Shown here piece by piece: positions 4,827 to 26,740 of a DNA stretch of 36,137 nucleotides (positions are counted from its first letter, which is position 1; the number at the start of each line of letters is the position of its first letter). Where the stretch lies: assembly GCA_964579045.1 (NCBI GenBank), contig CAZOHR010000003.1:1-36137 (forward strand), read 5' to 3'. The position numbers and the translations under genes are program-made. This DNA comes from an uncultured Bacteroidales bacterium (GTDB lineage: Bacteria; Bacteroidota; Bacteroidia; Bacteroidales; ML635J-15). The notes under the pieces were generated by a model. That model worked only from the letters and a program-made list of their open reading frames with translations, had not been told where the DNA came from and ran no database searches.

Positions 4827-4844
4827 TATAACGTAACAAATAGC

Positions 4845-4880: not shown

Positions 4881-4902
4881 AAACGAGAGGTAGAGAATTT
4901 AT

Positions 4903-6658: not shown

Positions 6659-6677
6659 TTTTTTTTATAACTTTATA

Positions 6678-6706: not shown

Positions 6707-6737
6707 ATGCACTCAAAGGAAGAAAAGAGGTGATAAA

Positions 6738-9207: not shown

Positions 9208-9358
9208 TAAAGAAAAATAAAAAAATATAAAAGATAGTGTAGGGTGTAGGGTTAGTGTATAGAAAATCGTAAACTTTTCTATAAAAAATATTTTTTATTC
9301 TTTGCAGACTTTTCTATATTTTATTACACTAACTATACACTATTACACTAAATATAAA
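9208..9358. repeat. TACAC/GTGTA iteron-bearing AT-rich element, copy B (inverted relative to 26601-26740)
   Basis: Positions 9325-9358 are the exact reverse complement of 26601-26634 (34 nt). Positions 9208-9221 are the reverse complement of 26727-26740 (14 nt). Internal arms are 9235-9262 (GTGTA x3) and 9324-9350 (TACAC x3), with a hairpin TATAGAAAA/TTTTCTATA at 9258-9283. Confidence 0.85.
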
Positions 9359-9360
9359 AT

Positions 9361-9415
9361 AATATTAAAAAATATTAAAAAAAGTATTGACAAAGGGTTT
9401 TTAATTTGATACAAT
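9361..9415 (+). promoter_or_regulatory. strong sigma-A type promoter, copy 2 (same UP tract and -35 as 1292-1346)
   Basis: TTGACA 9387-9392, a 17-nt spacer, then TGa TACAAT (-10 at 9410-9415). The 33-nt identity with copy 1 holds here too. The leader shares AAAAATTCAAA with copy 1. Confidence 0.8.
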
Positions 9416-9470
9416 AAAGACTGCAAGACAAATTAAATAAAAAATTCAAACGAAAAAGGAGAACACTAAG

Positions 9471-10739
9471 ATGTCAAAAGAAATGTTGCAACAAAGCGAA
9501 GTAAATATGTTAATATCATTATTCAATGCAAAAAAAGGAACTTGCTACAAATTTTCCGCACAAAAGAACTTAGACGGAATCAAAAGAGCTTGTGAAGTTT
9601 TGAACTATGACTTTCCAACTTTGAAAAAAGCGATTAACGATTTTGCTGGTAATGATTTTGATGTATTCATTAAACAATTACCAATACTAAGTGAATTCGG
9701 AACTCCTACTCCTGCTCCTGCTCCTGCTACTCCAACACCTATTACTCCAATACAACCAACTAATTTATCCGATGCCCAACAAACCGCACAAAATTCACTT
9801 AGCCTGCTTGAACAAGCGATGGCACAAATTTTTATTCAGCAAAAAGGTGACGAACTTGCAAAGGGAGTTCTCGAAAATGTAGAAAAACAAGTAACTGAAT
9901 TTATTTATAAAACTTATGGACCTATACAAAGAAAGATTGAAATACAATTTGGCGAAAAGAAAGCTCAACTTGAAGGAGTATTGCACGATAAATTCGACGA
10001 GGTACTTGCTTTCGTATCTGCAAATGAACCAGTATTCTTATGTGGACCTGCTGGTTCGGGTAAAAATGTATTATGTCAACAAATAGCACAAACACTCGAA
10101 CTTGATTTCTACTTCTCTAACGCAGTAACGCAGGAATACAAAATCACGGGATTCACAGATGCGATGGGTATTTTTCACGAATCGCAATTCTACAAAGCGT
10201 TTAAAAATGGCGGTGTATTTATGCTTGACGAAATGGACGCATCAATACCCGAAGTTCTAATAATACTTAATGCGGCAATAGCTAACCGTTACTTTGACTT
10301 TCCTGCTCCGATAGGATATGTCGAGGCACATAAAGACTTCCGTGTAATATCCGCAGGAAATACATTTGGACACGGAGCCTCATACCAATACGTTGGCAGA
10401 AATCAACTTGATATGGCAAGCCTTGACAGATTTGCGGTAGTTGAAATTTCATATAGTGAAGAAATCGAGAAAAGTTGTGCACAGGGAGATGAAGAACTCA
10501 CACAATTCATTAGACAATTTAGACAAGCAAGTGAAAAAAGCGGAATCAATACTATTACATCATACAGAGCTATTACAAGAATTTCAAAAATGGTTCCTGC
10601 TTTGGGTATTCAAAAAACACTTAAAACTTGTTTAACAAAATCTCTCGAACGAGATGATTTGAAAATGATTATTTCTAACATCAACTGCAACAATAAATAT
10701 GGACAGGCACTTAGAAAATTAAGTGAGGTGCATAACTAA
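9471..10739 (+). CDS. AAA_5 (MoxR/CobS/dynein-related) ATPase with N-terminal unknown domain and Pro/Thr/Ala linker
   Basis: Walker A is FLCGPAGSGKN and Walker B is VFMLDEMD. VISAGN and SLDRF (sensor/arginine region) are also present. The linker is TPTPAPAPATPTPITPIQPT. RBS AAAAAGGAG is upstream. Confidence 0.85.
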   Translation: MSKEMLQQSEVNMLISLFNAKKGTCYKFSAQKNLDGIKRACEVLNYDFPTLKKAINDFAGNDFDVFIKQLPILSEFGTPTPAPAPATPTPITPIQPTNLSDAQQTAQNSLSLLEQAMAQIFIQQKGDELAKGVLENVEKQVTEFIYKTYGPIQRKIEIQFGEKKAQLEGVLHDKFDEVLAFVSANEPVFLCGPAGSGKNVLCQQIAQTLELDFYFSNAVTQEYKITGFTDAMGIFHESQFYKAFKNGGVFMLDEMDASIPEVLIILNAAIANRYFDFPAPIGYVEAHKDFRVISAGNTFGHGASYQYVGRNQLDMASLDRFAVVEISYSEEIEKSCAQGDEELTQFIRQFRQASEKSGINTITSYRAITRISKMVPALGIQKTLKTCLTKSLERDDLKMIISNINCNNKYGQALRKLSEVHN

Positions 10740-11596
10740 TGGAAACTCGAAAAGTTAAAATGAAATGTCAAAGTCACACCGCAAATGTAGAACTTTATAA
10801 TTCAGCGAATGAATTAGTTGATACTTGCTTGAAGCGTACTTACAAAGGTGGTAGCTTTCACGGAGATACATTTAGCGGAAGTAGAGATAAAGGCGGCAGA
10901 AAATGGAATGGCGGACTTACTGCAAAACAATCACTTGAAACTCTTGCAAATGGTTGGAGCGAGAATGTGGAAAAGCTTACCAAGAAAATGAATTCAGTAA
11001 AACAACTTGCAGATGGAAAACGAAATACTTTTAGAAACGATGTTGTTGGATATTCTCCGATAGTACCGCTTGCAATAATGGGAGTTCCTACATCGATGAT
11101 AAGCTCAACTCAAAAGAAAATCAAGTCGAAAATAATTGACATTTACTACGACACAACAGTTTCTTGTGGAAATTCCGCAAAACAAATACTTGACAACGGA
11201 ATGAAACTTATGGAAACGGTAGTGAATCTTGAAAATAGTGGATATAGAGTTAGACTATCCGCTATGCAGAGCTACTCAGTTAGTGATAGTTCAGACATAT
11301 TGATAGTTAGAGTAAAAAATGAAAACCAACCACTTGATATAAAACGAGTAATGTTTCCAATTATGCACCCCGCTATGTTTAGAGTAATTGGATTTGGGTG
11401 GTACGAAAGATGTCCGACCGCTGAATATAGAAATGGATATGGCAGAGGACTTAGTTACAATATGAGCGAAAAAGAATTCGACATATTTGTAAAAGAACTT
11501 TTTGGAAAATCCGCCTGTGCATTAAGCGGAAAATTTATACAAGACAAGTCACAAGAATATATTGAAAAAACATTAAAAGGAGAGTACATCAAATGA
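10739..11596 (+). CDS. hypothetical protein, translationally coupled partner of the AAA_5 ATPase
   Basis: ATG 10739 overlaps the stop TAA (TAATG). The ORF is 285 aa. I recognise no motif. Confidence 0.65.
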   Translation: METRKVKMKCQSHTANVELYNSANELVDTCLKRTYKGGSFHGDTFSGSRDKGGRKWNGGLTAKQSLETLANGWSENVEKLTKKMNSVKQLADGKRNTFRNDVVGYSPIVPLAIMGVPTSMISSTQKKIKSKIIDIYYDTTVSCGNSAKQILDNGMKLMETVVNLENSGYRVRLSAMQSYSVSDSSDILIVRVKNENQPLDIKRVMFPIMHPAMFRVIGFGWYERCPTAEYRNGYGRGLSYNMSEKEFDIFVKELFGKSACALSGKFIQDKSQEYIEKTLKGEYIK

Positions 11597-12003
11597 TAAA
11601 AGCTAAAAACGAAATGGGGTGGGTGGTTTGCGGAAATTCGAACCACCGACTTGCAAAAATCAACGGAGATTTACCTAATGGAACTAATGTGGAAATAAAA
11701 TGCCACGGGTGTAGAGAAATAAATTCACTTGCAGAACTCAAAGGATTCCAACTCGGAGATATAGTGGCAACTATTGGTGCCTCGAATTTGAACCGAGACG
11801 AGGTAAAAATTGCACTTAACAAACACGCAAATTGCGATTGGGGAGATACGAATCCTGCTGATGCAAAACTTAATGATGAAGTTATCGCAACTTCTGACGG
11901 AAGAATATTCTCGGTATATCATACTTCTAACGGAATAAAGTTTTGGATAATTACAGAATGGGATAGAAGTTACACCACAGTATTACTGCCAAACGAATAT
12001 TAA
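11593..12003 (+). CDS. Com-like zinc-ribbon protein fused to a plasmid/ICE-type small domain
   Basis: The N-terminus VVCGNSNHRLAKINGD...VEIKCHGCREIN resembles the Mu Com zinc ribbon. The C-terminus is CDWGD...KFWIITEWDRSYTTVLLPNEY. Its start overlaps the upstream stop (ATGA). Confidence 0.65.
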   Translation: MIKAKNEMGWVVCGNSNHRLAKINGDLPNGTNVEIKCHGCREINSLAELKGFQLGDIVATIGASNLNRDEVKIALNKHANCDWGDTNPADAKLNDEVIATSDGRIFSVYHTSNGIKFWIITEWDRSYTTVLLPNEY

Positions 12004-12013
12004 GCACCCATAG

Positions 12014-12061
12014 AACTTTCGGGTATATCAACTCATATATTCATAGATGCACCCGAAAGTT
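12014..12061 (+). promoter_or_regulatory. perfect 11-bp stem hairpin without T-tract
   Basis: AACTTTCGGGT (12014-12024) pairs with ACCCGAAAGTT (12051-12061) around a 26-nt loop. It lies in the 101-nt gap before ORF 12105. Confidence 0.4.
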
Positions 12062-12104
12062 GCTTAGAAGTCAATTTTGAGGTTATGAAAACGAGGGAAA
12101 AACA

Positions 12105-12755
12105 ATGAAATTTTATATGGGTATGGGAGATTCTCGTGAGGAACTCGAAAAATTAGAAACAATAACGTTACAACAAATTTTAAAACAAGGGGGAACTAAA
12201 ATGGGGCAATATTTTGATTGCGTAATGGGAAGTGCAACAACAAAGTTTAGAAAATATCCTGCTCACGATTTCGGGCAGGGTGCAAAAATTACTGAACATT
12301 CTTGGGTAGGAAATGATTTTGTTAACAAGATGGCACATATTTTAAGGTTTACTCCAAGACAAGTAGCGTGGATTGGTGACTATGCGGAAGATGTAGAACC
12401 TAAATTCGACAATGTTGCAGAATTCAAATATAACGGAGTAAAAAAATTACCAGTTGATTATATGGAGAATGGTATTTTAGCGAATTACAGGAAAAAAGAA
12501 TACTTGGATATGTCGCTTTATTACGAGCTTAACAAGTATGACGATGCAAGAGATACTTGGTGTTTGAATCCTTTACCTTTATTGACTGCGGTAGGGAACG
12601 GACAGGGTGGTGGAGATTATCACGGAATAAACGAAGATGATGTTGGAATTTGGGCATACGATACATTGAGGTTTGCGAAACCGAGCGACTATGAAAATTG
12701 GAATTTAATTACCAGCTCGTTTACACCCGTAATGTATGAATTTAGAGAGGAGTGA
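12105..12755 (+). CDS. hypothetical protein (alternative start ATG 12201)
   Basis: RBS GAGGGA lies before ATG 12105. An internal ATG 12201 has a stronger RBS (AAGGGGGA 7 nt upstream). A GNGQGGGDYHG glycine-rich loop is present. Confidence 0.6.
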   Translation: MKFYMGMGDSREELEKLETITLQQILKQGGTKMGQYFDCVMGSATTKFRKYPAHDFGQGAKITEHSWVGNDFVNKMAHILRFTPRQVAWIGDYAEDVEPKFDNVAEFKYNGVKKLPVDYMENGILANYRKKEYLDMSLYYELNKYDDARDTWCLNPLPLLTAVGNGQGGGDYHGINEDDVGIWAYDTLRFAKPSDYENWNLITSSFTPVMYEFREE

Positions 12756-12761
12756 TAAAAA

Positions 12762-13046
12762 ATGTATGATGCACAAAAAGATTTTGACAGGCAATCAGAA
12801 AAAGTAGAAAAAAACAACGAAGAATTTTTATCGGCAATACGAGAATTTAAAACTCGCATAAATTCACTCGAAGAAAATGATTCTTCAAATGAAAGAGTTA
12901 TTGAACTCACGAGGGAATTAAGAGTGCGACTTTCTGATATTGGAATCGTATGTAAGGTTTGCGGAAAACTAATTGATGATTTTGGAGCAGACGGAGAGCC
13001 GAGGTTATGCGGAGAGTGTATTGATTGGGGGTTTAACTTAGATTGA
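12762..13046 (+). CDS. hypothetical protein with C-terminal CxxC...CxxC zinc ribbon
   Basis: RBS GAGAGGAGTG is upstream. The zinc ribbon is CKVCGKLIDD...LCGEC. Confidence 0.6.
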   Translation: MYDAQKDFDRQSEKVEKNNEEFLSAIREFKTRINSLEENDSSNERVIELTRELRVRLSDIGIVCKVCGKLIDDFGADGEPRLCGECIDWGFNLD

Positions 13047-13231
13047 GCAAAAAACTTGATTTTAGATATAGACCAATCACATCATCGTTTAATATAAATT
13101 ACGCAGTAGAAGATTGCAGGACAAAGCAGAATCAAGACCATAGGCAAACGGAAAAACGCAAGAAAAAGTTAGCCGAGATAGATGTGGAAAAAGAGGCTGA
13201 CGAAATATTTTTAAAAATAGGATTGGAGTGA
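13043..13231 (+). CDS. hypothetical basic protein (TTG start, weakly supported)
   Basis: The ORF fills the gap between neighbours. It has a TTG start with a distant GGGGG, which gives poor start evidence. Confidence 0.35.
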   Translation: MSKKLDFRYRPITSSFNINYAVEDCRTKQNQDHRQTEKRKKKLAEIDVEKEADEIFLKIGLE

Positions 13232-13235
13232 TTTA

Positions 13236-13757
13236 ATGCGACAGAAAAATTTAGGTTTGATGTTTTATTCTCTATTAGTGACATTCGTATTCGTGACTTA
13301 CATATTATTTAATTGCAATGAACCGCAGGAAGTATTCGAGCGACAAGATTCTCCTATGCAGGCGGATTTGGTAATACCCGACTCGCAGATTTATCAAAAA
13401 GTAGAAAAAACGCTTGTAGCTCCAAAATTCACTTCATATAGCAACCCCGACAAACAAATGATGGCGAAAGTTTTATTTAAGGAATCACGAGGAGAACCCG
13501 ATGCAGGGCAGAGAGCAATAGTGAAACTCATATTGAATCGGAGAGATAGTAAGATTTTTGGTGACTCGATTCAAGATATACTTAATGCAAGAGGTCAATT
13601 TGAAATGTCGAACACATATACCGCAAAAGAAATGTCAAATGTCGAATATGTAATAAGCAACGGATTTGATTTGCCACAGGAATTTTGTTACTTTGGAACT
13701 TGGAGATTCAGGACAGGAGAATATAAGAAGATAGGCAACCATTATTTTATGAGATAG
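13236..13757 (+). CDS. SleB-like cell-wall hydrolase (Hydrolase_2) with N-terminal membrane anchor/signal
   Basis: MMAKVLFKESRGEPDAGQRAIVKLILNR...ILNARGQFE matches the SleB/CwlJ catalytic-domain pattern. The N-terminal hydrophobic helix is LGLMFYSLLVTFVFVTYILF. Confidence 0.75.
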   Translation: MRQKNLGLMFYSLLVTFVFVTYILFNCNEPQEVFERQDSPMQADLVIPDSQIYQKVEKTLVAPKFTSYSNPDKQMMAKVLFKESRGEPDAGQRAIVKLILNRRDSKIFGDSIQDILNARGQFEMSNTYTAKEMSNVEYVISNGFDLPQEFCYFGTWRFRTGEYKKIGNHYFMR

Positions 13758-13771
13758 GAGTGCATAACGAA

Positions 13772-14050
13772 ATGCGAAAATCAGAAGACATAAAAAGATT
13801 GATAACGCTACCTTGCGATATAGGTGGAGATATATTTTGGGTAGATGCAGATACTAAAACTGTAAGATGTGAAGAAAAGGGAATCAGAGGAATATTAGTG
13901 AGAAAAGATAAGTTTTTGATTGAGGACAAGACGGGCACTGTTGATGAAATCGGAACAACGTATTGCCATTTGACAAGAGAGAGTGCGGAAAAAGAATTAG
14001 TTGGATTCCTGCAAAAACAACAAGAAGAATTCGAGGGGAGTGGTATATAG
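13772..14050 (+). CDS. hypothetical protein
   Basis: The ORF spans 13760-14050. The GTG at 13760 abuts AGGAG, so ATG 13772 is more plausible. Confidence 0.5.
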   Translation: MRKSEDIKRLITLPCDIGGDIFWVDADTKTVRCEEKGIRGILVRKDKFLIEDKTGTVDEIGTTYCHLTRESAEKELVGFLQKQQEEFEGSGI

Positions 14051-14364
14051 TGAGAGTGGCAAAAGGAGAATTACAAAATAAAGATAAAATATGTGAGATT
14101 GATGGTTGCGAAAATGTGGTATGCTCGAAAAACTTATGCAACAAACACTATAAACGAAAACGACGGGCAGAGGGAAAAATCAAATCAAGAGCAAAGAGAT
14201 TCAATAAAGATTTAGCAAGAGTTGTGAGATGCCGATATTGTGTATGGAGAAATACAGAAATGTGTTTTCGTTCATATCCTGCTGACAATTTAATTGCAGG
14301 TTACGAAATTGGAATGACCCTTGATGATGATTATTGCAGTGAGGGGGCGACTGAAATTGATTAA
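14050..14364 (+). CDS. Cys-rich zinc-finger protein (CxxxxC...CxxH motif as seen in phage HNH-associated modules)
   Basis: GTG 14050 has GAGGGGAG upstream. ICEIDGCENVVCSKNLCNKHYKRKRR is followed by a second Cys cluster, RCRYCVWRNTEMC. Confidence 0.5.
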   Translation: MRVAKGELQNKDKICEIDGCENVVCSKNLCNKHYKRKRRAEGKIKSRAKRFNKDLARVVRCRYCVWRNTEMCFRSYPADNLIAGYEIGMTLDDDYCSEGATEID

Positions 14365-14440
14365 CGAAAAAGTGTTTCCGATTATACTAATGGTATTAAA
14401 TTTATGTGCAAGTTAAGTTAAAAAACATAAATAATTATAA

Positions 14441-14475
14441 AGTCAAGCGTTTAAAATACGCTTGACTTTTTGATT
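14441..14475 (+). terminator. intrinsic terminator
   Basis: The perfect 10-bp stem AGTCAAGCGT / ACGCTTGACT has a 7-nt loop and is followed by TTTTTGATTTTT. Confidence 0.85.
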
Positions 14476-14490
14476 TTTCAAGACTATAAT
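14462..14490 (+). promoter_or_regulatory. consensus sigma-A promoter embedded in terminator 3' arm
   Basis: TTGACT (14462-14467), exactly 17 nt, then TATAAT (14485-14490). Confidence 0.7.
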
Positions 14491-14532
14491 TGTTCTTGAA
14501 TGAATATATTTTATTAAAAAGGTGGTGAATTT

Positions 14533-14856
14533 ATGCGAAAACTAAAAGAATTCGCAGAGAAATATCCGTGGACATTTTCTAAAACTTATGCAAGAACTGC
14601 TCCGCACGAATATGTAGTTAGGGAGAATGTGGCAGATGATGAATCGTTTGATGAAATTGTAATGCTTATTCGTGAAAAGGGATTCAAGTGTAATTTTTGG
14701 AAAGCGGAACATATCTACTTAGAGTTAGATGGAAAATACTATTGGACTATGGGAAGTCCACTTGAAGAAACAATAATTATCAACAGGTGCGAATCAAAAG
14801 ACTATGTTATTTTCAACATAAAAGACGGAAAGGTAGGAATGAAATATGCGAGGTAA
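14533..14856 (+). CDS. hypothetical conserved phage protein, first gene of candidate modification operon
   Basis: RBS AAAAGGTGGTG is upstream. The motif WTFSKTYARTAPHEYVV...YYWTMG resembles a recurrent phage family; this is from memory and unverified. Confidence 0.65.
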   Translation: MRKLKEFAEKYPWTFSKTYARTAPHEYVVRENVADDESFDEIVMLIREKGFKCNFWKAEHIYLELDGKYYWTMGSPLEETIIINRCESKDYVIFNIKDGKVGMKYAR

Positions 14857-15058
14857 GAGAGTGCGAGAATTTCACAAAATGGAAAGACAAATTGCTGAAT
14901 TGAAAGGAGATTTACAGAAAATCGATAGCACTAATATTGTTATCCACAACAACGTATTCGGACTTTGCGAGCAACTCAATGAAATTAAGAGAAAGCGGGT
15001 GAGTTATAGACTATGGCAATTAATTACAAAGAGAATACCGTTTTTGACGAAGCATTAG
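14846..15058 (+). CDS. small coiled-coil hypothetical protein (uncertain)
   Basis: The ORF overlaps both neighbours (11 nt upstream, 46 nt downstream). An alternative start is ATG 14879. Confidence 0.35.
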   Translation: MRGKRVREFHKMERQIAELKGDLQKIDSTNIVIHNNVFGLCEQLNEIKRKRVSYRLWQLITKRIPFLTKH

Positions 15059-16152
15059 AACGCATTGAGTTCGTTTTTCAGAATCACGATGATGTAATTG
15101 TTTCAATGAGTGGTGGCAAGGATTCTACTGTATTATTCGAACTTGCTTATAGAGTCGCAAAGAAGTTGGACAGGTTGCCCTTAAAGGTATTTTGGTTAGA
15201 CCAAGAGGCAGAGTGGCAAGCAACTGTTGACTATATGCAAGGGATATTTGGTAGGGAATTTGTAACTCCACTTTGGTTTCAGATTCCTTTTGATTTTACG
15301 AATAGTTTATCGCACGAGAATAACTATTTGAAAATTTGGGATATTGAGAAAAAAGATAACTGGATTCATAGTCAAAGTGAAATTTCTATCAAGGAAAATA
15401 TCACTAAATATAATCGGTTCCACGATTTAGTTAATTATTTACCGAGTGCTTATGCAGAGGGAAAAGAAACTGCATTACTTGTGGGTATGAGAATATCAGA
15501 GAGCTTTAATAGGCGGACAACCATTATGAATTCGAGTTCAAGTTACAAAGGAATCACTTGGAGTAAAATGCCACGAGGAGCTTGTAGAACTTTTTGGCCT
15601 ATATATGATTTTACCGACGATGATATTTGGACTGCTATTGCTAAGAACGATTGGGAGTATAATAAAATCTATGACTTTCAGTATAACTGGGGAGTGGCTA
15701 AAAAAGGTATGCGTGTATCCGCATTGATTCACGAAACATCGTGGCACGCAATAGAAATGTTGCAGGAATTCGAATACAAAACATATAATAAATTCATTAA
15801 ACGAATAGGTGGAGTTAGTTGTTTTAATCATTTTGGAAAAGACATTATCGTTAGAGAATTACCGTTTGCTTTTAAGGATTGGAAAGAATATCGTGACTAT
15901 TTATTGGTGAATTTGGTAAAACCCGAATATTGGGATTTATTCAAACGAAGATGGAGCAAGCAAGAGGGCGAAAAATGGCACAGAATCCACACAAAAGAAG
16001 TTTTGATAAATGACATCGATGGAACTCTAAATGCCAACCACTCGTCAACGGTAAGGCTGAAAAACAAGAAAGAAGTGGGAAACAATAAATATTTCAAGCA
16101 CGATAGAGAACAATTTGATGAATATATGAAAGGCGGAGCAGAAAATGATTAA
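15013..16152 (+). CDS. PAPS-reductase-family PP-loop ATP pyrophosphatase, IbrA-like
   Basis: The PP-loop SGGKDS lies at nt 15109-15126 within VIVSMSGGKDSTVLFELAY. VGMRISES is also present. A long C-terminal extension follows, as in DUF3440-type IbrA proteins. Confidence 0.85.
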   Translation: MAINYKENTVFDEALERIEFVFQNHDDVIVSMSGGKDSTVLFELAYRVAKKLDRLPLKVFWLDQEAEWQATVDYMQGIFGREFVTPLWFQIPFDFTNSLSHENNYLKIWDIEKKDNWIHSQSEISIKENITKYNRFHDLVNYLPSAYAEGKETALLVGMRISESFNRRTTIMNSSSSYKGITWSKMPRGACRTFWPIYDFTDDDIWTAIAKNDWEYNKIYDFQYNWGVAKKGMRVSALIHETSWHAIEMLQEFEYKTYNKFIKRIGGVSCFNHFGKDIIVRELPFAFKDWKEYRDYLLVNLVKPEYWDLFKRRWSKQEGEKWHRIHTKEVLINDIDGTLNANHSSTVRLKNKKEVGNNKYFKHDREQFDEYMKGGAEND

Positions 16153-16720
16153 AGACCAACCGATTGATGAAGTAGTGTGGGTGCCAATAGAAAAGATTTT
16201 TGCTAACGATTATAACCCGAATTCTGTTGCTACAATGGAGATGAAACTCCTTTATGTGTCAGTAAAAAATGATGGGTACACTCAACCAGTAGTAACTATT
16301 TATGATTTCAAGCGAGATAGGTACACTATTGTAGATGGGTTCCACAGATATTCTATTATGAAAAGATACAAAGATATTTATGATTCTTGCGAGGGGAAAT
16401 TGCCTTGCGTAGTATTGAAGAATAAAACTGAAAATGATAGAATGGCGGCAACGGTTAGACATAACAGAGCGAGAGGAAAGCACTCCGTAAACGGAATGTC
16501 GAATATTGTAATGGAAATGCTTTTGAATGGTGCAAGTGACTTGCAAGTGTGCAACGAATTAGGGTTAGAGGCAGAGGAACTTATTCGTTTAAAACATATA
16601 ACAGGATATGCCAAGCTTTATATGAATAACACCTACACCAAAGCAAAAATGAGTGAAAAACAAGTAGAAGAAAAGAGGAAATACGAAGATGCGTTACATA
16701 ATGAGGGCGATAAAAAGTAG
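16145..16720 (+). CDS. ParB/Srx-fold protein, IbrB-like
   Basis: VPIEKIFANDYNPNS...GYTQPVV...IVDGFHRY is a ParB N-terminal domain signature. It overlaps the IbrA-like gene by 8 nt. Confidence 0.8.
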   Translation: MIKDQPIDEVVWVPIEKIFANDYNPNSVATMEMKLLYVSVKNDGYTQPVVTIYDFKRDRYTIVDGFHRYSIMKRYKDIYDSCEGKLPCVVLKNKTENDRMAATVRHNRARGKHSVNGMSNIVMEMLLNGASDLQVCNELGLEAEELIRLKHITGYAKLYMNNTYTKAKMSEKQVEEKRKYEDALHNEGDKK

Positions 16721-17231
16721 GGAGCATTTTGTGGACGAGGTAAAAGCAGAAATTCCCGAATTAGAAGTACATTATGACGATACAGGAAGTGCGATGGAAT
16801 CATTGAAATATACCTTAGAACATATTATTGGTGACGATGCTTGCGTGTTATTCGAAGATGATATTGAGTTATGCGATGATTTTAAAAACAAGATAGAAAG
16901 TGTTATAAATGAATTGCCCGATACTTTAATCAGTTTCTTTTCGTTATCAAAGAAAAACGTAGTTCCATATTGGAAACGAGGGAAAGAATTTTGTATGATG
17001 CAATGCGTATATTTGCCAAAAGGATTCGCAAGCAAATTATTATCTACTTATGACGATTGGAGAGCTACACAGGGAGTTAGTAATTTGCAAGCAACAGATT
17101 TTTGGATTGGGTATGCGTGGAAAATTGAATATTTCGTATATTGCCCAAGTTTGGTGCAACATAGAGTGTGTGTTTCTGCTATTGATAAGCGGAGAAGTAG
17201 TAAAAGACAATCGATAACATTTAAGAAGTAA
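16689..17231 (+). CDS. GT-A-like glycosyltransferase candidate (family-25-like), function uncertain
   Basis: ACVLFEDDIELCDDF resembles the acidic EDD/DxD loop of GT25-type enzymes, and the size is about 180 aa. Alternative start is ATG 16701. It overlaps the upstream gene. Confidence 0.5.
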   Translation: MRYIMRAIKSREHFVDEVKAEIPELEVHYDDTGSAMESLKYTLEHIIGDDACVLFEDDIELCDDFKNKIESVINELPDTLISFFSLSKKNVVPYWKRGKEFCMMQCVYLPKGFASKLLSTYDDWRATQGVSNLQATDFWIGYAWKIEYFVYCPSLVQHRVCVSAIDKRRSSKRQSITFKK

Positions 17232-17270
17232 AATTCAATAAAAATCAAACAAAAGGGAGAATGTAAAATA

Positions 17271-17939
17271 ATGGAAAATATACAGATAGTTTACAAACAG
17301 ATTAGCGAGATAAAACCATACATTAGGAATCCGAGGCAGAACAAGAAAACGATTGAGATGCTCGTAAAATTGATTCCGCAAGTAGGATTCAATGTTCCGT
17401 TGGTAATTGATAAAAACGGAGTTATCGTCAAAGGACATTCAAGATTTGTGGCAGGAATTCAATTAGGTATGACTGAATTACCTTGCATTGTTTCTGATGC
17501 TGACGAAGAAAGTATTAAGCTCGATAGAATCGCTGATAATAGAGTGAGTGAATTTTCAGAGTGGGTGAATGAACCATTGATGCACGAGCTTGATATGTTG
17601 ACTATGGACTTCTCTTTCTTGGAATTCCCTATGCCGAAAGTGGAATTACCGCAATTTAAAGAAGAATTCGCTGAATTCGACGAAGATTTAGGTGGAGATG
17701 ATGAAAAACCCGAAGATTTAGAAGAACGCAAAAAGCGTTTTCTTGAAATGCAGGAGCAACAAAGGAAAGCAGGAAACGGAGTTCAAATTGCTACTGAACA
17801 AGGATTGCAAAAAGCATTAGAGAAACAAGGAGCAGAGGCAGTAGAACCGCCTAAATATTATAAAATAGTATGCGAAGATTGTGGACACGTTCAATTTGTA
17901 AAAGCCGAAGATGTTTGGGAATCAGAGGAACGAGTTTAA
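17271..17939 (+). CDS. ParB-like nuclease-domain protein with acidic C-terminal region and CxxC element
   Basis: ISEIKPYIRNPRQN...VPLVIDKNGVIVKGHSRFVAGIQLG is the ParBc type usually fused to N6_N4 methylases. An acidic tract is EFAEFDEDLGGDDEKPEDLEE. VCEDCGH is also present. Confidence 0.8.
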   Translation: MENIQIVYKQISEIKPYIRNPRQNKKTIEMLVKLIPQVGFNVPLVIDKNGVIVKGHSRFVAGIQLGMTELPCIVSDADEESIKLDRIADNRVSEFSEWVNEPLMHELDMLTMDFSFLEFPMPKVELPQFKEEFAEFDEDLGGDDEKPEDLEERKKRFLEMQEQQRKAGNGVQIATEQGLQKALEKQGAEAVEPPKYYKIVCEDCGHVQFVKAEDVWESEERV

Positions 17940-17961
17940 TGGCTCGATAGGAGTGATTATT

Positions 17962-18507
17962 TTGTATAATTCCGCACTTGATACACACAATAAGAGAGAT
18001 GGTTCCGTTAACAATTATCATAACGGAACCGCTTTCGTACATAACATTTTAAACGGAACAGATGAACGTTTTTTGTACGCAGATGCCATTTATTCAGAGA
18101 TTTCGTGGCAAAAAGGGTTCGAAAAGTTTATGAAAAGAGCAAATGTAGAGGATTTCCGCACTTATAAAGAGTATATTGATTCAATTATTGCAGTTGTAAA
18201 ATGGCTTGGAGTTCCTACAATTCTGATATGTGGAAAGACAGGAATCACAGGTTATGATTGGAAACACGAAACATATTTTAGTGCCGTGAAATGCAAGGCA
18301 GTTGCTTATGGATTCAACTGTAAAAAAGTGAAATTTGATACTACTGATTTGTATATGGACTATCTTGCGGAAACGAAAGAAACTCTACTTGATTTTTGTT
18401 GCGGATATGGGAATATATTGAGGTTTTGCGATTTACACGACACTAAATTCATTTGTTCGGATATAAACGAGGATTGCATAAATTATATAAAAGGAGTTGA
18501 GGCTTAA
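17962..18507 (+). CDS. methyltransferase-like protein with permuted (beta-class) order and degenerate motifs
   Basis: TTG 17962 has AGGAG 8 nt upstream. A motif IV-like DAIY is at nt 18082-18093 (FLYADAIYSE). A motif I-like DFCCGYG is at nt 18391-18411, near the C-terminus. Confidence 0.5.
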   Translation: MYNSALDTHNKRDGSVNNYHNGTAFVHNILNGTDERFLYADAIYSEISWQKGFEKFMKRANVEDFRTYKEYIDSIIAVVKWLGVPTILICGKTGITGYDWKHETYFSAVKCKAVAYGFNCKKVKFDTTDLYMDYLAETKETLLDFCCGYGNILRFCDLHDTKFICSDINEDCINYIKGVEA

Positions 18508-20128: not shown

Positions 20129-20240
20129 ATTATGGGTAAATTTTCAGAGCTTGATATAGAGAGCAGAGAAATTGAAATGAAAGTGATAGTTGGGGAATTT
20201 GAGCAAGAAGAACCAAAATATAAAAAAGAGGGTGAACAGT

Positions 20241-21635: not shown

Positions 21636-21648
21636 GGGGTTGAGATAA

Positions 21649-23856: not shown

Positions 23857-23859
23857 AAA

Positions 23860-24132
23860 ATGGAATTTGTGGCAAGAGGAAAATATTTAGGCGAAAAAGT
23901 AAAAGTGAGATTCAGAAATGGAACCTTTATATGTGATGATAAAGAACTTAAAGAAAATCTAATAAGCGACTATGAATTTCCTGTACCTAACCACATAGGC
24001 AACATCTACTTCAAAGGTGAAACTGATAAGTCGGCAGTAATGTCTTGCTATACCAATTTAATTGACTGTAAAATAGATGGAGCAGGAGAAATTTTAGGTT
24101 TAAGCGATTCGATTAGTGGAGAAATATATTGA
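23860..24132 (+). CDS. hypothetical protein
   Basis: RBS GGGGGTG lies upstream of the ATG, 3 nt after the MuF stop. Confidence 0.6.
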   Translation: MEFVARGKYLGEKVKVRFRNGTFICDDKELKENLISDYEFPVPNHIGNIYFKGETDKSAVMSCYTNLIDCKIDGAGEILGLSDSISGEIY

Positions 24133-24142
24133 CAAAAAAGAC

Positions 24143-24171
24143 TTGACAAGATATAATTATTGGTTTATACT
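24143..24171 (+). promoter_or_regulatory. sigma-A type promoter for scaffold/capsid genes
   Basis: TTGACA (24143-24148), 17 nt, then TATACT (24166-24171). A second TTGACA is at 24129-24134. Confidence 0.65.
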
Positions 24172-24182
24172 AATGTCAAATG

Positions 24183-24218
24183 AAGTCGGACAAGCATAAG
24201 TCGGACAAGCATAAGTCC
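24183..24218. repeat. tandem 15-bp repeat AAGTCGGACAAGCAT x2 plus partial third unit
   Basis: Units are at 24183-24197 and 24198-24212, with a partial AAGTCC at 24213-24218. The repeat is a GC-richer island in the predicted capsid-operon leader. Confidence 0.85.
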
Positions 24219-24283
24219 TTTAAAATAGTGTTACTCAAAATCGTGGAGAAAACCACATTTAAAATAACGGGGGGTATGGATAA

Positions 24284-24850
24284 ATGGAATTTTTAAAAGA
24301 AGCGTTTGGAGATGCAAAAATAGGTTACGATGATTTCGTAAAAGTTGCAACCGAAAAGGGATTCAATATAGCTGACCTAAGTAAAGGCGGTTATGTTGGA
24401 GTAGAAAAACATAACACGGAAGTAGGAAAATTCAAAACACAATTCGAAACTATCAAAAAGCAGTATGACGAGCAAGTGAAAGCACTTGATGGCGACGATG
24501 GTTTGAAAAAGCAGATTGAAAAACTGACGGGTGAGAAATCCGACTTCGAGGGTAAATTCAATCAAACTACAAGCGAGTTATCAAAGCTGAAAAACACGCA
24601 ATCAGTAATGAAAGCAGGAGTTGTGTCAGATATGGCTGACTTTGTCACTTACGAGGTTGGCAAAATGACAAATGATACTCTTGATTTCGACACAGCACTA
24701 AAAGGTTATCTGTCTAAAAATCCACAATTCAAATCCGAAAATAAGGTGAAAGTGAAAACTACTCCAAATTTAGAGGGCAAGAATGAAGATGAAAAAGGAC
24801 TAAACCAAAAAATGAATCAAGCCTTTTTAAAGGCCGCAGGACGGGAATAA
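24284..24850 (+). CDS. scaffolding protein (GP20-like)
   Basis: Its position is immediately before the capsid gene. It is alpha-helical and charged, with N-terminus YDDFVKVATEKGFNIADLSKGGYV. RBS is GGGGGG. Confidence 0.7.
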   Translation: MEFLKEAFGDAKIGYDDFVKVATEKGFNIADLSKGGYVGVEKHNTEVGKFKTQFETIKKQYDEQVKALDGDDGLKKQIEKLTGEKSDFEGKFNQTTSELSKLKNTQSVMKAGVVSDMADFVTYEVGKMTNDTLDFDTALKGYLSKNPQFKSENKVKVKTTPNLEGKNEDEKGLNQKMNQAFLKAAGRE

Positions 24851-24877
24851 AAAAATAATATTTAGGGGGAAAATCGA

Positions 24878-26092
24878 ATGTCAGTAAACATTATAAACAG
24901 AGCAGGAGCAGAGGCACTTATACCCGAGGAAGTGACAAATAACATTATTCAAGGAGTGGTAAAAGAATCGGCTACACTTAGCTTATTTAGAAAATTACCA
25001 AATATGGCATCAAATGTTCAGTCAATGCCAATCCTTGATATGTTACCAATGGCTTATTGGGTAAATGGAGATACAGGCAAAAAAGCTACAACAAAAATGG
25101 CGTGGGATAAAAAGAAAATCTATGCAGAAGAAATTGCTGTTATCGTTCCAATACCCGAATCAGTATTGAACGATGCAGGAGATAGCGGTTATGATATTTG
25201 GGGTGAAGTGCAACCAAGAATCATAGAGGCATTTGGTAGAGTAATTGATGATGCGGTTTTATTTGATGTTAACAAACCTGCAAGTTGGAGAGATGGTATT
25301 GTAACTACTGCTATGAAAGCTGATAGCTATGTAGATGCTACCGCTGACTTCTATCAAGATGTTTTTGATGAACACGGGGTAATCGGCAAGGTTGAGGAAA
25401 GCGGATTTTTACCAAATGGTGTAATTTCTGCGGTTACTATGCGTGGCAAAATCCGTGGTATGGTTGATGGAAACAAAAGACCATTGTTCACAGATAATAA
25501 ATCACTTGATGGTATGCCAATATTTTTCCTTGAAAATGGTTCGTGGGTTGATTCACAAGCAAGCCTTATCGTTGGCGATATGGCACAAGCAGTTTACTCA
25601 ATCCGTCAAGACATCACTTATAAATTGCTAACAGAGGGTGTTATTCAAGATGCAGATGGCACAATTATCTACAATCTTGCACAACAGGATATGGTAGCGT
25701 TGAGAGTGGTAATGCGTTTAGGTTGGGAAATTCCAAATCCTATAAATGCGTTAAAACCAAATCACGGAGAAAGATGCCCATTTGCAGTTTATGTTCCATC
25801 GACAGGCGAACAACCTCTTGCAAATGAAATCACAATTACATCAGTAGCAGGAGCTACAAGTGGTAAGACAAAAATTACTGTTGTTGGTGCAACAGAGGGA
25901 TTGACATATAAATATAAGACTGACACCACAGTTGCACTTCCACTTCTTAATGCTCCAACAGATACTTATACTGCTTGGAATGGTATAGCGGATATTACTG
26001 CAACAACAGGTAACGAAATCGTTATTATTCAAATTGATGCTTATGGCAAGGTTGAAAATGCAGGTAAAACAACTGTAACTTCAAAAGCTTAG
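24878..26092 (+). CDS. major capsid protein (HK97-fold) with C-terminal Ig-like decoration domain
   Basis: EALIPEEVTNNIIQGV...LPMAYWVNGDTG is typical of Phage_capsid family proteins. The C-terminal ITITSVAGATSGKTKITVVGA...YKYKT looks like a Big_2-type Ig domain. Confidence 0.85.
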   Translation: MSVNIINRAGAEALIPEEVTNNIIQGVVKESATLSLFRKLPNMASNVQSMPILDMLPMAYWVNGDTGKKATTKMAWDKKKIYAEEIAVIVPIPESVLNDAGDSGYDIWGEVQPRIIEAFGRVIDDAVLFDVNKPASWRDGIVTTAMKADSYVDATADFYQDVFDEHGVIGKVEESGFLPNGVISAVTMRGKIRGMVDGNKRPLFTDNKSLDGMPIFFLENGSWVDSQASLIVGDMAQAVYSIRQDITYKLLTEGVIQDADGTIIYNLAQQDMVALRVVMRLGWEIPNPINALKPNHGERCPFAVYVPSTGEQPLANEITITSVAGATSGKTKITVVGATEGLTYKYKTDTTVALPLLNAPTDTYTAWNGIADITATTGNEIVIIQIDAYGKVENAGKTTVTSKA

Positions 26093-26122
26093 TTGATTGA
26101 TGAATAAAAGGGGGTAAGACAA

Positions 26123-26473
26123 ATGTTTGTAGATTCAATTTATTATAAAACGAATTACAAAGGTACGCTTATCCCCGATGATTCGTTTGCAGAATTCGAA
26201 GAACGAGCAAGCGAATTCATTGTGGGATATGTAATGCAACAGATTGATGTTGACAATCCACACGAAGAAGTTAAAAAATGCACTTGCAGGTTGGCTGAAA
26301 TTCTTTATAATGACGTTAACCCAAAAATTGCATCAGAAACAGTAGGACCACACTCAACACAATATGCACAAAATATGCAAAATGAAAAACTAAAATCGCT
26401 CGAATCTCGAATGGTTTTTCAAATTAGATTGTATTTAGGAAAAACGGGATTGTTGAGCTTGGTAGTAAATTGA
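26123..26473 (+). CDS. head-tail connector/adaptor (gp6/gp15-like)
   Basis: Position and size fit. The N-terminus YKGTLIPDDSFAEFEERASEFI is typical of Phage_connect_1-type proteins. Confidence 0.65.
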   Translation: MFVDSIYYKTNYKGTLIPDDSFAEFEERASEFIVGYVMQQIDVDNPHEEVKKCTCRLAEILYNDVNPKIASETVGPHSTQYAQNMQNEKLKSLESRMVFQIRLYLGKTGLLSLVVN

Positions 26474-26476
26474 GAA

Positions 26477-26527
26477 GATTATGGTAAACCAATTTTAAAA
26501 ATAAGGCGATTATGGTAAACCAATTTT
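26477..26527. repeat. 20-bp direct repeat GATTATGGTAAACCAATTTT x2, 31-bp phase
   Basis: Exact copies are at 26477-26496 and 26508-26527. Each contains a TGGT-AA-ACCA dyad. Confidence 0.85.
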
Positions 26528-26600
26528 TCTGAAACGGAGTAAAAAACAGTTTTTCGATTTTCAAAATTCCTTTACTTTTTTTTACTCTATTATATATTTA

Positions 26601-26740
26601 TTTATATTTAGTGTAATAGTGTATAGTTAGTGTATATAATATAGTAAAGTCCCTATAAGAAAAAAAATAATTTTATAGAGAAAGTTATGGAAATCGCTAC
26701 ACTAACTATACACTCCTACACTACTCTTTATTTTTCTTTA
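26601..26740. repeat. TACAC/GTGTA iteron-bearing AT-rich element, copy C (inverted relative to 9208-9358)
   Basis: See copy B. The match is 34 nt and 14 nt perfect at the two ends. The interior is roughly three-quarters identical by hand alignment, with one ~10-nt indel. Confidence 0.85.

Follow-up and report, generated by a model that had tools for sequence, protein, structure and literature searches.

Two inverted elements, copy B and copy C, located 17.2 kb apart in the window (the whole stretch of DNA analysed here, 36,137 nucleotides from an uncultured Bacteroidales bacterium), are probably both copies of a phage replication-origin module of the SaPI type. Copy B, which lies directly 3′ of the gene of the putative initiator, would represent the canonical origin, and copy C, oppositely oriented and located in the late region, would represent a second, selectively maintained module for binding of the initiator. 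In our best reading, the initiator of the phage would bind to B and C as two modules, with a function similar to that of oriL and oriR of SPP1 or of ori and crr of P4. Such a phage layout would be a variant of a known origin type, with a second, inverted copy placed among the structural genes. Of the three interpretations offered by the original prediction, we infer that duplicated iteron origins are to be favoured, on the basis of the SaPI ori features, the adjacent homolog of PriRep5, and the plan of the annotated origin of phage A2, whereas centromere sites for ParB-family proteins and terminators or insulators are not.

Anatomy and genomic setting of the two elements

Both copies consist of a core of 63–64 nt, with ~80% A+T, placed between three GTGTA and three TACAC units (Table 1). 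The units that had been predicted for copy B were located at 9237, 9244, and 9255 (GTGTA) and at 9325, 9336, and 9344 (TACAC), and those of copy C at 26611, 26619, and 26630 (GTGTA) and at 26698, 26709, and 26717 (TACAC). The core of copy B, which is the predicted unwinding region, includes the hairpin noted originally, formed by TATAGAAAA (9258–9266) and TTTTCTATA (9275–9283), with a second TTTTCTATA box at 9310–9318. Folding predicts long imperfect DNA hairpins for both copies (z = -5.0 for B and -4.0 for C), in agreement with their earlier description as long imperfect palindromes. The two arms of copy C, 92% complementary over 26 nt, are more symmetric than those of copy B. Conservation is highest in the L arm, and alignment reveals a core box, TTATAGRAAA (reverse complement TTTYCTATAA), that is conserved among elements with differing iterons.

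Table 1. Positions in the window of the two elements, their parts, and the genes that mark their surroundings.
Feature	Positions	Strand	Description
HTH_17 gene	6633–6917	+	Small excisionase/MerR-like DNA-binding protein; Pfam HTH_17 3.6e-12; PHROG HTH DNA-binding protein
Primase-helicase gene	6860–9199	+	Likely true start ATG 6911; Pfam, PDB, and tblastn matches
Copy B, A-rich left flank	9208–9234	+	Holds the 14-nt TAAAGAAAAATAAA, also present at copy C
Copy B, whole element	9235–9350		Three GTGTA, AT-rich core, three TACAC
Copy B, L arm TAGTGTAGGGTGTAGGGTTAGTGTA	9235–9259	+	Three GTGTA iterons, spacing 7 and 11 nt
Copy B, core	9260–9323	+	64 nt, 83% A+T; holds hairpin 9258–9283 and two TTTTCTATA boxes
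Copy B, R arm	9324–9350	+	Three TACAC iterons, spacing 11 and 8 nt, opposite to the L arm in orientation
A-rich UP-like tract and sigma-A-type promoter of the middle operon	9351–9415	+	TTGACA 9387–9392, 17-nt spacer, TACAAT 9410–9415
Head-tail adaptor gene	26123–26473	+	phrog_541, 7e-18; marks the late-copy position
Copy C, whole element	26609–26723		Three GTGTA, AT-rich core, three TACAC
Copy C, arm equivalent to the R arm of B	26609–26634	-	GTGTA x3 as read on the + strand
Copy C, core	26635–26697	-	63 nt, 78% A+T
Copy C, arm equivalent to the L arm of B	26698–26723	-	TACAC x3 as read on the + strand

All coordinates of the original prediction proved exact. Residues 9325–9358 are the reverse complement of 26601–26634 (34 nt, with not one base further on either side), and 9208–9221 that of 26727–26740 (14 nt). 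The interior aligns in the inverted orientation, as had been claimed, although the estimate of three-quarters identity was too low: the mean column identity is 86% over ~210 aligned nt, with the core 67% and the flanks 57–66% identical. In a repeat search, the inverted match reaches 62 nt at 85%. The local alignment score is 125 for the inverted and 50 for the direct orientation, with 18.5±2.6 for shuffled controls; the orientation is thus real and not an ambiguity caused by the palindromes. Compared to 3.3 expected, the window has 11 occurrences of TAGTGTA, all but one of these inside the two copies, and all four occurrences of GTGTA-N6-GTGTA (0.02 expected) are found there. The similarity of B and C is far above chance, and the search for further copies that had been proposed yielded no third one within the window. 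Nothing but the A-rich block and the -35 box to the right of copy B recurs, at the early promoter (1283–1324, 95% over 42 nt).

The original description of both locations was also accurate. Copy B starts 36 nt past the stop codon of the primase-helicase gene, with a TTGACA-17-TACAAT promoter behind it, and copy C is located in a gap of ~347 nt between the head-tail adaptor gene and the next gene. The segment between the copies holds the terminase, portal, and capsid genes, which, like all other genes, lie on the one coding strand. The GC skew has no inflection at B or C, a comparison confounded by the one-strand gene layout. The replication module of the window includes a DEAD-type helicase, a Sak4-like AAA_24 protein, and a DUF669 SSB-like protein.

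The primase-helicase, the predicted origin-binding initiator, comprises N-terminal PrimPol and helix-bundle domains, D5_N with the SF3 helicase, and a Pox_D5-type C-terminal domain (Pfam NrS1-1_pol-like_HBD 3e-29, D5_N 2e-26, DUF5906 1e-7, and Pox_D5 7e-9, the latter for residues 682–769). Its residues 23–738 match PriRep5 of SaPI5 (7OLA, E 3e-40), and in tblastn it is 43.7% identical to the primase of phage A2 and 49.7% to that of Listeria phage PSA. The C-terminal domain alone has no significant sequence match in the PDB, its AF2 model (pLDDT 49) does not confirm a winged-helix fold, and its identity, compared at a coarse level, does not track the iteron type. The HTH_17 protein, encoded just upstream in a position that is conserved in relatives (as a 59-aa gene before the primase gene in L253, L254, and L255), is a candidate for an alternative binder or an accessory factor.

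Conservation in a second phage and in other relatives

The two-copy inverted layout is kept in a second, diverged phage, with the primase 67% and the capsid protein 64% identical to those of the window. This phage was rebuilt from contigs 3300000525_000039, 3300023301_000271, and 3300000405_000114, with overlaps 99.5–99.8% identical over 7.8–12.1 kb, so that its two copies are linked via overlapping contigs of different samples and not within one contig. The primase-adjacent element (L034, 9093–9203) is followed by a promoter in the same order as at copy B, and the late element (L042, 9070–9292) lies in a 380-nt gap after the adaptor ortholog (8577–8942). The two elements are ~16.5 kb apart and inverted relative to each other. 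The L arm is 85–96% identical over all four copies in the two phages, compared to 34–67% for the cores and 26–78% for the flanks. Between the two copies of the second phage, the corresponding values are 92% for the L arm, 46% for the R arm, 36% for the core, and 31–33% for the flanks. The iteron arm is therefore conserved more strongly than its surroundings. The presence of the same layout in a diverged phage suggests that copy C is probably functional rather than a stray duplicate.

In four other relatives (L253–L256), an origin-like core is found in the late region only, with the primase flank of L256 lying outside the fetched part; no element follows the primase gene in L253–L255. Their late element separates the minor capsid protein gene from the scaffold gene, roughly the position of oriR on the SPP1 map. 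The elements of L253 and L256 have cores homologous to that of copy C and the same orientation (core score 41 vs 19 for L253 and 43 vs 16 for L256, null about 16±2.5, z about 9–11), and similar elements occupy this place in L254 and L255. The + strand reading of the copy C core can be aligned to its late-region counterparts in L253, L256, and L042. In L254 and L256, the repeats around the core are CTACAT/ATGTAG and not GTGTA, and the block of ParB-like and PAPS-reductase genes is kept.

This type of element is syntenic with primase-helicase genes well beyond these phages. About 20 metagenomic relatives of the primase from IMG/VR have the same plan immediately downstream, with an iteron sequence of their own in each, and searches for GTGTA/TACAC palindromes by DNA pattern only hit spots beside primase-helicase homologs on unrelated contigs, some with 57–63% GC. 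Several copies are found in other genomes as well (L200/L202 and L203/L223). In turn, the cultured relatives A2 and PSA have an iteron cluster at one site only, and a second copy is thus no general requirement.

Alternative explanations

It is unlikely that the iterons serve instead in transcriptional control, as operator or enhancer sites of a phage regulator, such as the HTH_17 protein or an HTH_3 protein (2592–2858), with the promoter that follows the element under its control and copy C as a decoy or a regulated late-region site. In its favour, strong promoters (near-consensus TTGACA, preceded by an A-rich tract) lie 30–45 nt downstream of copy B, of the L034 element, and of the late elements in L253, L254, and L256, and relatives keep an HTH_17 gene just ahead of that of the primase. 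However, no convincing coding-strand promoter was found downstream of copy C or its L042 ortholog, and the early promoter (1318), as well as the primase-proximal promoters of L253–L255, have the A-rich tract and the -35 box without iterons. Moreover, elements of this type follow primase-helicase genes in very different genomes, including the annotated origin in A2. Because many origins adjoin promoters, one role does not rule out the other. Rather improbable is a copy C that is tolerated and unused, whether as a recent product of inverted duplication or gene conversion of B, or as a by-product of shuffling of an L034-like replication module with an L042-like structural module. The likeness of B and C throughout their length would suggest recent homogenisation, mosaicism is visible, with terL and capsid relatives carrying other replication modules, and A2 and PSA manage with one site. 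On the other hand, both positions and the relative orientation are retained at only 64–67% protein identity, the two copies of the second phage have mainly their iteron arms in common, the arms of C exceed those of B in symmetry, and C has a core that matches those found late in L253 and L256.

The remaining readings, as ParB sites, terminators, or ends of a mobile element, are not supported. Sites of the parS or centromere type are improbable, although two ParB_N-domain proteins (16145–16720 and 17271–17939), named in PHROGs as ParB-like partition proteins, are encoded between the copies: they match the N-terminal ParB domain only, below the Pfam cut-off (22.4 and 20.6 bits vs 26.3), their PHROG matches include nucleases and N termini of methyltransferases, and no ParA-type match was seen among the window proteins scanned. 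They form a conserved block with the PAPS-reductase gene, which is kept in L254 and L256 despite the different repeats there, and A2, PSA, and SaPIs share the plan of the element with no ParB-like gene in their records or descriptions (for SaPI, PMC9371898). Intrinsic terminators or insulators, delimiting a middle transcription unit by long RNA hairpins, are equally improbable. Such hairpins could form at both copies, both located at operon boundaries, and a T-rich run follows the hairpin at C on the + strand; yet the terminator scan lists none at B or C while finding clear ones at 1181–1214 and 14439–14469, the stems are AT-rich with a loop of about 63 nt, and no Rfam family is matched. At B, A-runs and not T-runs follow the stem on the transcribed strand, and the L042 ortholog leads straight into a ribosome-binding site without a T-run, so that a terminator role shared by both sites, as proposed originally, is not supported. 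The 34-nt perfect inverted identity and the high identity over 210 nt might also point to a substrate for inversion of the 17.2-kb segment, or to the ends of an inserted mobile element, which we consider the least probable of all: no gene of a recombinase or transposase was identified within the segment or beside it, its structural genes share the strand of the rest of the genome, the gene orientation is identical in the second phage, and there are relatives with a single copy at either site.

Comparison with known replication origins

The reading of B and C as two copies of an origin module is in line with the definition of SaPI ori, which comprises 6–12 iterons of five or six nucleotides that directly follow the rep ORF, with an AT-rich centre and two or more iterons on either side, oppositely directed, as binding sites of the C-terminal winged helix of Rep (PMC9371898). 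As in SaPIs (SaPI5 with PriRep5, SaPI1 with Rep1), the initiator, here a homolog of PriRep5, is encoded immediately 5′ of an element with six pentanucleotide iterons in two opposed sets around an AT-rich centre (PMC9371898). A single ori downstream of rep is described for SaPIs, whereas the window phage has a second, inverted copy, and its putative origin belongs to a complete siphophage. In the record of Lactobacillus phage A2 (AJ251789), a rep_origin is annotated at 32208–32717, right after the homologous primase, with ACGGGAGGAT x3, an AT core, and inverted iterons. This plan of direct iterons, AT-rich core, and inverted iterons is the same as in the window, as is the content of the replication module; however, the iterons of A2 are ACGGGAGGAT and not GTGTA, present at a single site, and A2 has a temperate lifestyle, while the window yielded no integrase.

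The original prediction had correctly pointed to two sites in SPP1, where oriL lies within gene 38 and oriR in a segment of the late region, interrupting the order of structural genes, both bound by gp38, which is proposed to stall the fork at oriR, leading to a theta-to-sigma switch and concatemer synthesis (PMC6316719). As in the window, one of two similar elements with repeats and AT-rich unwinding regions is found in the replication region and the other in the late region (PMC6316719). SPP1 differs in using gp38, the gp39 loader, and the gp40 DnaB-type helicase in place of an unrelated, self-loading SF3 primase-helicase, and its repeats are described as direct, with oriL within gene 38, whereas the window has opposed iteron sets in an intergenic element.

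We can envisage that the GTGTA iterons, three per side in opposite directions, would be bound by the C-terminal DNA-binding domain of the primase-helicase, with subsequent melting of the core, after which the SF3 helicase ring would self-load and the PrimPol domain would prime synthesis. The most likely role of copy C would then be that of a further origin, or that of a partner site, bound by the initiator, that would pair with B or arrest forks coming from B, resembling the proposal for gp38 at oriR.

The alpha protein of satellite phage P4 is a single polypeptide with primase and SF3-type helicase parts and an origin-binding domain at its C terminus, and alpha reportedly binds both ori and the cis replication region crr. 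The same short iterons occur there at two separate cis sites about 4.5 kb apart, with crr being a tandem repeat. The window phage is similar in its one-polypeptide initiator and its two distant sites, and differs in the 17.2-kb distance and in the class of the primase domain. The Pfam family Pox_D5, matched by the window protein, also covers the C-terminal region of alpha. In the relatives L030 and L031, the iterons are GGTTCACAA, similar to the type I iteron of P4.

Organisation of the two elements and of the window

The window (36.1 kb, 35.7% G+C), in which all convincing genes lie on the + strand, is most of a siphophage genome. In a circular-closure check its ends showed no terminal overlap and genes were found to run off both of them, so the circle is not closed. 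Searches with both element regions (blastn) gave no DNA match among GenBank phages, thus pointing to the lack of a close cultured relative. Exact-protein look-up found no copy of the head–tail adaptor protein on record, and exact matches to the window's own ParB protein solely on short contigs of 1–5 kb. The GC skew is positive across the window with no inflection, a profile confounded by the one-strand coding bias.

The two elements, copy B next to the replication genes and copy C among the structural genes, are built on the same plan, with three GTGTA units, an A+T-rich core (64 nt, 83% A+T in copy B; 63 nt, 78% A+T in copy C), and three TACAC units. Each copy thus carries six iterons, three per side, in opposed directions. 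The coordinates put forward in the original prediction were all borne out, including exact inverted matches of 34 nt and 14 nt between the copies, and the hairpin TATAGAAAA/TTTTCTATA is indeed present in copy B. When aligned in the inverted orientation, the copies are 86% identical over ~210 nt. Local alignment of the two scores 125 in the inverted and 50 in the direct orientation, compared to 18.5±2.6 for shuffled controls, and the gap between the first two values indicates that the element is asymmetric enough to have a defined orientation. Ten of the 11 TAGTGTA sites of the window are located inside the two copies (3.3 sites are expected for the whole window), and GTGTA-N6-GTGTA is found in the window four times vs 0.02 expected; these motif statistics exclude a chance origin of the clustering. 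Folding indicates that long imperfect hairpins or cruciforms are possible for both copies (z = -5 for B and -4 for C). A check for further copies, run within the window, revealed no third copy of the element, and the sole part that recurs is the A-rich block with its -35 box to the right of copy B, found again at the early promoter. No relevant Rfam match, which would have indicated a known RNA family, was present at either site.

Features of the window, in order of position
Feature	Position	Description
Amidase gene	ends 1175	terminator then follows
Relative of GCATAAATATACA	1250-1262	2 mismatches; beside early promoter
A-rich UP-like blocks with TTGACA -35 box	1283-1324, 9352-9393	42 nt, 95% identical; at early promoter and after copy B
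Early promoter	1318
Replication module	1400-9199	AAA_24/Sak4-like, DUF669, DEAD/ResIII helicase, small HTH_17, and 779-aa primase-helicase genes
Copy B	9235-9350	L arm starts at 9235, 36 nt past the primase-helicase stop at 9199
Middle block	9471-18507	AAA_5 ATPase, DUF7192 protein, PAPS-reductase, two ParB_N-only proteins
Bidirectional terminator	14439-14469	perfect 12-bp stem; overlaps -35 box of the following promoter
Strong promoter	14462-14490	TTGACT-17-TATAAT
PAPS-reductase and ParB-like block	15013-17939	PAPS-reductase-domain gene, then two ParB_N-only genes with a 180-aa gene between
Structural genes	after middle block	in order: small and large terminase subunits, portal, minor capsid protein, scaffold, major capsid protein, head-tail adaptor, tail genes
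Overlapping sigma-70-type promoters	24129-24171	two, near-consensus (12/12, 11/12); directly upstream of scaffold and capsid genes
Major capsid protein	24878-26092	C-terminal S-layer SbsC_C (Ig-like) domain, Pfam 3.8e-10
Head-tail adaptor gene	26123-26473	phrog_541
GATTATGGTAAACCAATTTT direct repeats	26467-26527	two of 20 nt, 31 nt apart; span adaptor-gene end and start of gap upstream of copy C; nowhere else in window
Promoter-like ATTACA-17-TATAAT	26617-26589 (- strand)	10/12; begins within copy C arm, points outward, antisense to adaptor gene
Copy C	26609-26723	plan as copy B
GCATAAATATACA 13-mers	26755-26767, 26786-26798	two, exact, 31 nt apart; downstream of copy C, upstream of next gene

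Copy B and its candidate initiator

The origins of SaPIs consist of 6–12 penta- or hexanucleotide iterons immediately downstream of rep, arranged around an AT-rich centre with half of them on each side, at least two per side in opposite directions (PMC9371898). Copy B matches every architectural point (position after the initiator ORF, six iterons, AT-rich centre, opposed sets), whereas copy C matches in iteron number, AT-rich centre, and opposed sets, but differs in its position after the head–tail adaptor gene. The SaPI iterons are bound in an ATP-independent manner by the C-terminal winged helix of Rep, which then self-loads (PMC9371898). Rep and PriRep are hexameric SF3 helicases, and the window primase-helicase is related to them, with Pfam matches to NrS-1-type PrimPol/HBD, D5_N, SF3 (DUF5906), and Pox_D5, and with residues 23–738 aligned to SaPI5 PriRep5 (PDB 7OLA) at E 3e-40. 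This alignment extends to residue 747 of the 7OLA chain, in which the C-terminal domain begins at ~676, and the Pox_D5 match covers residues 682–769 of the window protein. Taken alone, the C-terminal domain has no significant PDB sequence match (the best is a PC4-like protein, E 0.04), and a search for its homologs gave only two matches, the AF2 model built from them having a pLDDT of 49. At coarse resolution, no clear trend relates the identity of this domain to iteron type.

The closest cultured relatives of the primase-helicase (tblastn) are found in Listeria phages PSA and B025 (~50%) and in Lactobacillus phage A2 (43.7%). In the A2 record a rep_origin (32208–32717) is annotated directly after the primase ORF, and its identity as an origin is taken from this GenBank annotation; its sequence comprises three ACGGGAGGAT units, an AT-rich core, and inverted iterons. 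The 287-nt gap that follows the primase gene of PSA holds iteron clusters in both orientations. Both A2 and PSA have a single iteron site each.

The same association extends to metagenomic relatives. A protein-first survey that started from the primase-helicase yielded 33 IMG/VR loci, and in about 20 of them the primase gene is immediately followed by direct iterons, an AT-rich core, and inverted iterons. The iterons of these relatives are lineage-specific (GTGACGG, TGACGGGTT, CTGACGACC, GTGTGGTGA, GGTTCACAA, and others), and the core box TTATAGRAAA (reverse complement TTTYCTATAA) is common to the cores whatever the iterons. In searches by DNA pattern only (GTGTA/TACAC palindromes), the matches adjoin genes homologous to that for the window primase-helicase, in contigs that have no other relationship to the window (L038/L039, L124/L126, L134/L135, L149, L181, and L200), some with 57–63% G+C. 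A gapless palindrome scan missed most elements because of indels and was replaced by an iteron-pair detector. In two loci with CTGACGACC-type origins (L029, 33–120, and L032, 13–101), a second, unrelated palindrome of 88 nt, with arms ~CTTCTGATACCATTATACCACA, is found 6 kb upstream of the primase gene. The recognition site of the NrS-1 PrimPol is GTG(A/G) (PMC8718748). GTGTA contains GTG, but the iterons of several relatives lack it, and a reading of GTGTA as such a primase site was set aside.

Late-region elements in related phages

The replication module has its closest relative in contig 3300000525_000039 (loci L034 and L260), with a primase that is 67% identical to that of the window. In L034 a GTGTA element after the primase gene is followed by an A-rich tract, a promoter, and an AAA_5 gene, as in the window. 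For the head module, contig 3300023301_000271 (locus L042; capsid protein 64% identical) comes closest. Its adaptor gene is immediately followed by a gap of 380 nt, in which GTGTAGGGT iterons and a homolog of copy C are located. A probe of 49 nt, taken from the end of 3300000525_000039, matched 3300023301_000271 and a third contig, 3300000405_000114. Since the overlaps of these contigs are nearly identical (blastn, 99.82% over 7,821 nt and 99.65% over 12,126 nt), the three represent one phage sampled three times, and this second phage, a composite of overlapping contigs, thus has both copies, separated by ~16.5 kb vs 17.3 kb in the window.

When the four copies are aligned together, the GG-type arm TAGTGTAGG(N)GTGTAGGGTWAGTGTA coincides in copy B (+), copy C (reverse complement), L034 (+), and L042 (reverse complement), hence the late copy is inverted in both phages. 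The L arm is 85–96% identical in all six pairings of the four copies, with 34–67% for the cores and 26–78% for the flanks. In the second phage, similarity between the two copies is largely confined to the arms (L arm 92%, R arm 46%, core 36%, flanks 31–33%). Such a pattern of segments is that expected of two sites selectively kept for one binding protein, not of a decaying duplicate. Copies B and C of the window are similar throughout, which suggests that they were homogenised more recently. Judging from these alignments, copy C is conserved and not accidental. Only L042 has both the gap and the element after the adaptor gene, neither being present in the other capsid-protein relatives (55–63% identity). 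Relatives of the large terminase subunit have unrelated replication modules and no gap, and show mosaicism only.

A different arrangement is seen in four relatives found via the ParB-like protein (L253–L256). In L253–L255, with a primase ~60% identical to that of the window, a promoter but no element is found after the primase gene, and in L253 a terminator comes before this promoter; the stretch of L256 that was retrieved begins past its primase gene. In all four, the gap that precedes the scaffold gene contains an origin-like core flanked by repeats, and in L253, L254, and L256 this late core is followed by an A-rich tract and a TTGACA promoter. The gap matches the window region of the two overlapping promoters upstream of the scaffold gene. 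The core of copy C (+ strand) aligns with L253 (+) at 41 vs 19 and with L256 (+) at 43 vs 16 (null ~16±2.5), and the primase-adjacent core of another relative, L015, aligns with copy B (+), but with copy C only when inverted. These core alignments indicate that orientation goes with position, primase-adjacent elements lying one way relative to the genes and late-region elements the other.

Multiple copies are found elsewhere as well. One 49-kb contig (51% GC) carries two 225-nt GTGTAGGGT elements that are 97.8% identical (L200, 8672–8896, and L202, 10169–10393), apparently direct and not inverted, one of them right after a primase-helicase homolog; a 24.8-kb contig has two GTGTAGGGT origin-like palindromes (L203, 10462–10600, and L223, 3626–3760). 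Several GTGTAGGGT iteron palindromes of like plan, with TATAGGAA-type cores, are also present in L232 (2611–3280 and 7100–7300) and L213 (2200–2420 and 13600–13951), both of which encode Sputnik-type virophage capsid proteins, and in the small contigs L182 and L239. In L232 the first palindrome follows a gene for an 837-aa DUF5906 helicase, whose only pairwise similarity to the primase-helicase of the window is in the P-loop, and in L213 two palindromes are located near the contig ends and are inverted.

Proposed roles of the two sites

Among the three roles offered in the original prediction, that of duplicated iteron-type origins appears best supported, by architecture, initiator homology, synteny, and conservation, and the best-supported reading is that both elements would serve as binding modules for the phage initiator. 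The C-terminal domain of the primase-helicase would bind the opposed iterons, the AT-rich core would melt, the SF3 ring would load itself, and the PrimPol domain would prime. Copy B would be the canonical origin, whereas copy C could fire as a second origin, act as a looping or handcuffing partner similar to crr of P4, or form an initiator-bound barrier, as proposed for oriR of SPP1. In SPP1, oriL and oriR are likewise two similar elements made of repeats and AT-rich DNA, one of them in the replication region and the other breaking the order of the late structural genes, and it is proposed that a fork coming from oriL is arrested by oriR-bound gp38, leading to a switch to concatemer synthesis (PMC6316719). 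The likeness lies in the conserved inverted orientation and in the position interrupting the structural gene order, whereas the machinery is different. SPP1 employs gp38 as the origin-binding protein, gp39 as the loader, and gp40 as a DnaB-family helicase; the replication genes found in the window encode a PriRep-like SF3 primase-helicase, a DEAD/ResIII helicase, AAA_24, and DUF669, and no protein scanned there matches a DnaB-type helicase or a loader family. P4 provides another known two-origin layout, in which one primase-helicase with an origin-binding domain reads like iterons at two cis sites, ori and crr, both of them needed. In the window, two sites with common iterons are present, and the primase-helicase has a match to a Pox_D5-type C terminus. 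Its Sak4-like AAA_24 protein, DUF669 SSB-like protein, and accessory helicase are what recombination-dependent restart would need.

The strongest rival explanation is a transcriptional operator or enhancer, as strong promoters lie just downstream of several copies; however, copy C and its ortholog in L042 have no convincing one, and the same promoter blocks are found without iterons. A terminator or insulator, also proposed originally, is not supported. Neither site was reported by the terminator scan, a T-run follows copy C only, and the AT-rich stems with loops of ~63 nt differ from the compact GC-rich hairpin with an immediate U-tract that would be expected.

Nor is there support for the remaining original proposal, that the elements are ParB centromeres (ParABS partition sites) for the two ParB-family proteins encoded between them. 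These proteins match the N-terminal domain only (ParB_N), below Pfam's cut-off, whereas a full-length ParB would have HTH and dimerisation domains, and no ParA-type match was found among the window proteins scanned. Moreover, the ParB-like proteins belong to the PAPS-reductase block, and A2, PSA, and SaPIs, which list no ParB-like gene, have elements of this type as well. The inverted copies might, in turn, be an inversion substrate or the ends of a mobile element, but no recombinase gene was found in or beside the segment between them, this segment contains essential genes, and gene orientation is the same as in the second phage.

Returning to the copies as initiator-binding modules, the element type is already known from SaPI origins (PMC9371898) and, by GenBank annotation, from phage A2, and the two-origin layout is known from SPP1 (PMC6316719). 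What is new, as far as we found, is that phages with a self-loading SF3 primase-helicase have such copies as a conserved inverted pair, that some relatives have the late-region copy only, and that the elements have a core box in common. Origins of the SaPI Rep/PriRep type have hitherto been studied as single sites beside the initiator gene, and the A2 record annotates one such site. Conservation of an inverted second copy would mean that a two-site design is also available to phages whose SF3 initiators load themselves; since SPP1 and P4 have it with other machinery, this design would have arisen more than once. We can tentatively speculate, while considering it rather doubtful, that a siphophage clade with self-loading primase-helicases keeps a two-site origin system, with a canonical origin beside the initiator gene and an inverted late site with its own job. 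The latter might be a polar, initiator-bound fork trap that switches theta to concatemer synthesis, or even, given that the late copy is the only one in some relatives, the primary origin. All elements would then share TTATAGRAAA as a common unwinding or priming signal whatever their iteron specificity, and virophages may even use the module, in several copies.

With two defined sites of 115 nt, a single candidate protein, and natural variants that have either site or both, these phages offer a test system that could address the effect of a second initiator-binding site on initiation, fork arrest, and the switch to concatemers. Cloned origin elements confer phage resistance, as reported for the origins of dairy phages. 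Such elements are also useful for finding origins in the genomes of uncultured phages, for which the core box, together with iteron-plus-primase synteny, offers a simple annotation rule.

Several minor features were observed in the window. At copy C part of the A-rich tract is kept, with the -35 box lost. The GATTATGGTAAACCAATTTT repeats may be a candidate binding site for another factor, and the GCATAAATATACA 13-mers, with a whole-window count that alone is not significant, may be operator-like sites. The promoter-like site on the minus strand at copy C might reflect origin-proximal transcription or a chance match. The overlapping terminator and promoter in the middle segment mark a further operon boundary. 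The block of PAPS-reductase and ParB-like genes, which is kept in L170 and in L253–L256, resembles a module for DNA modification or a nuclease module more than it does a partition system. The equivalent of the SbsC_C domain of the major capsid protein is a separate small ORF in L253.
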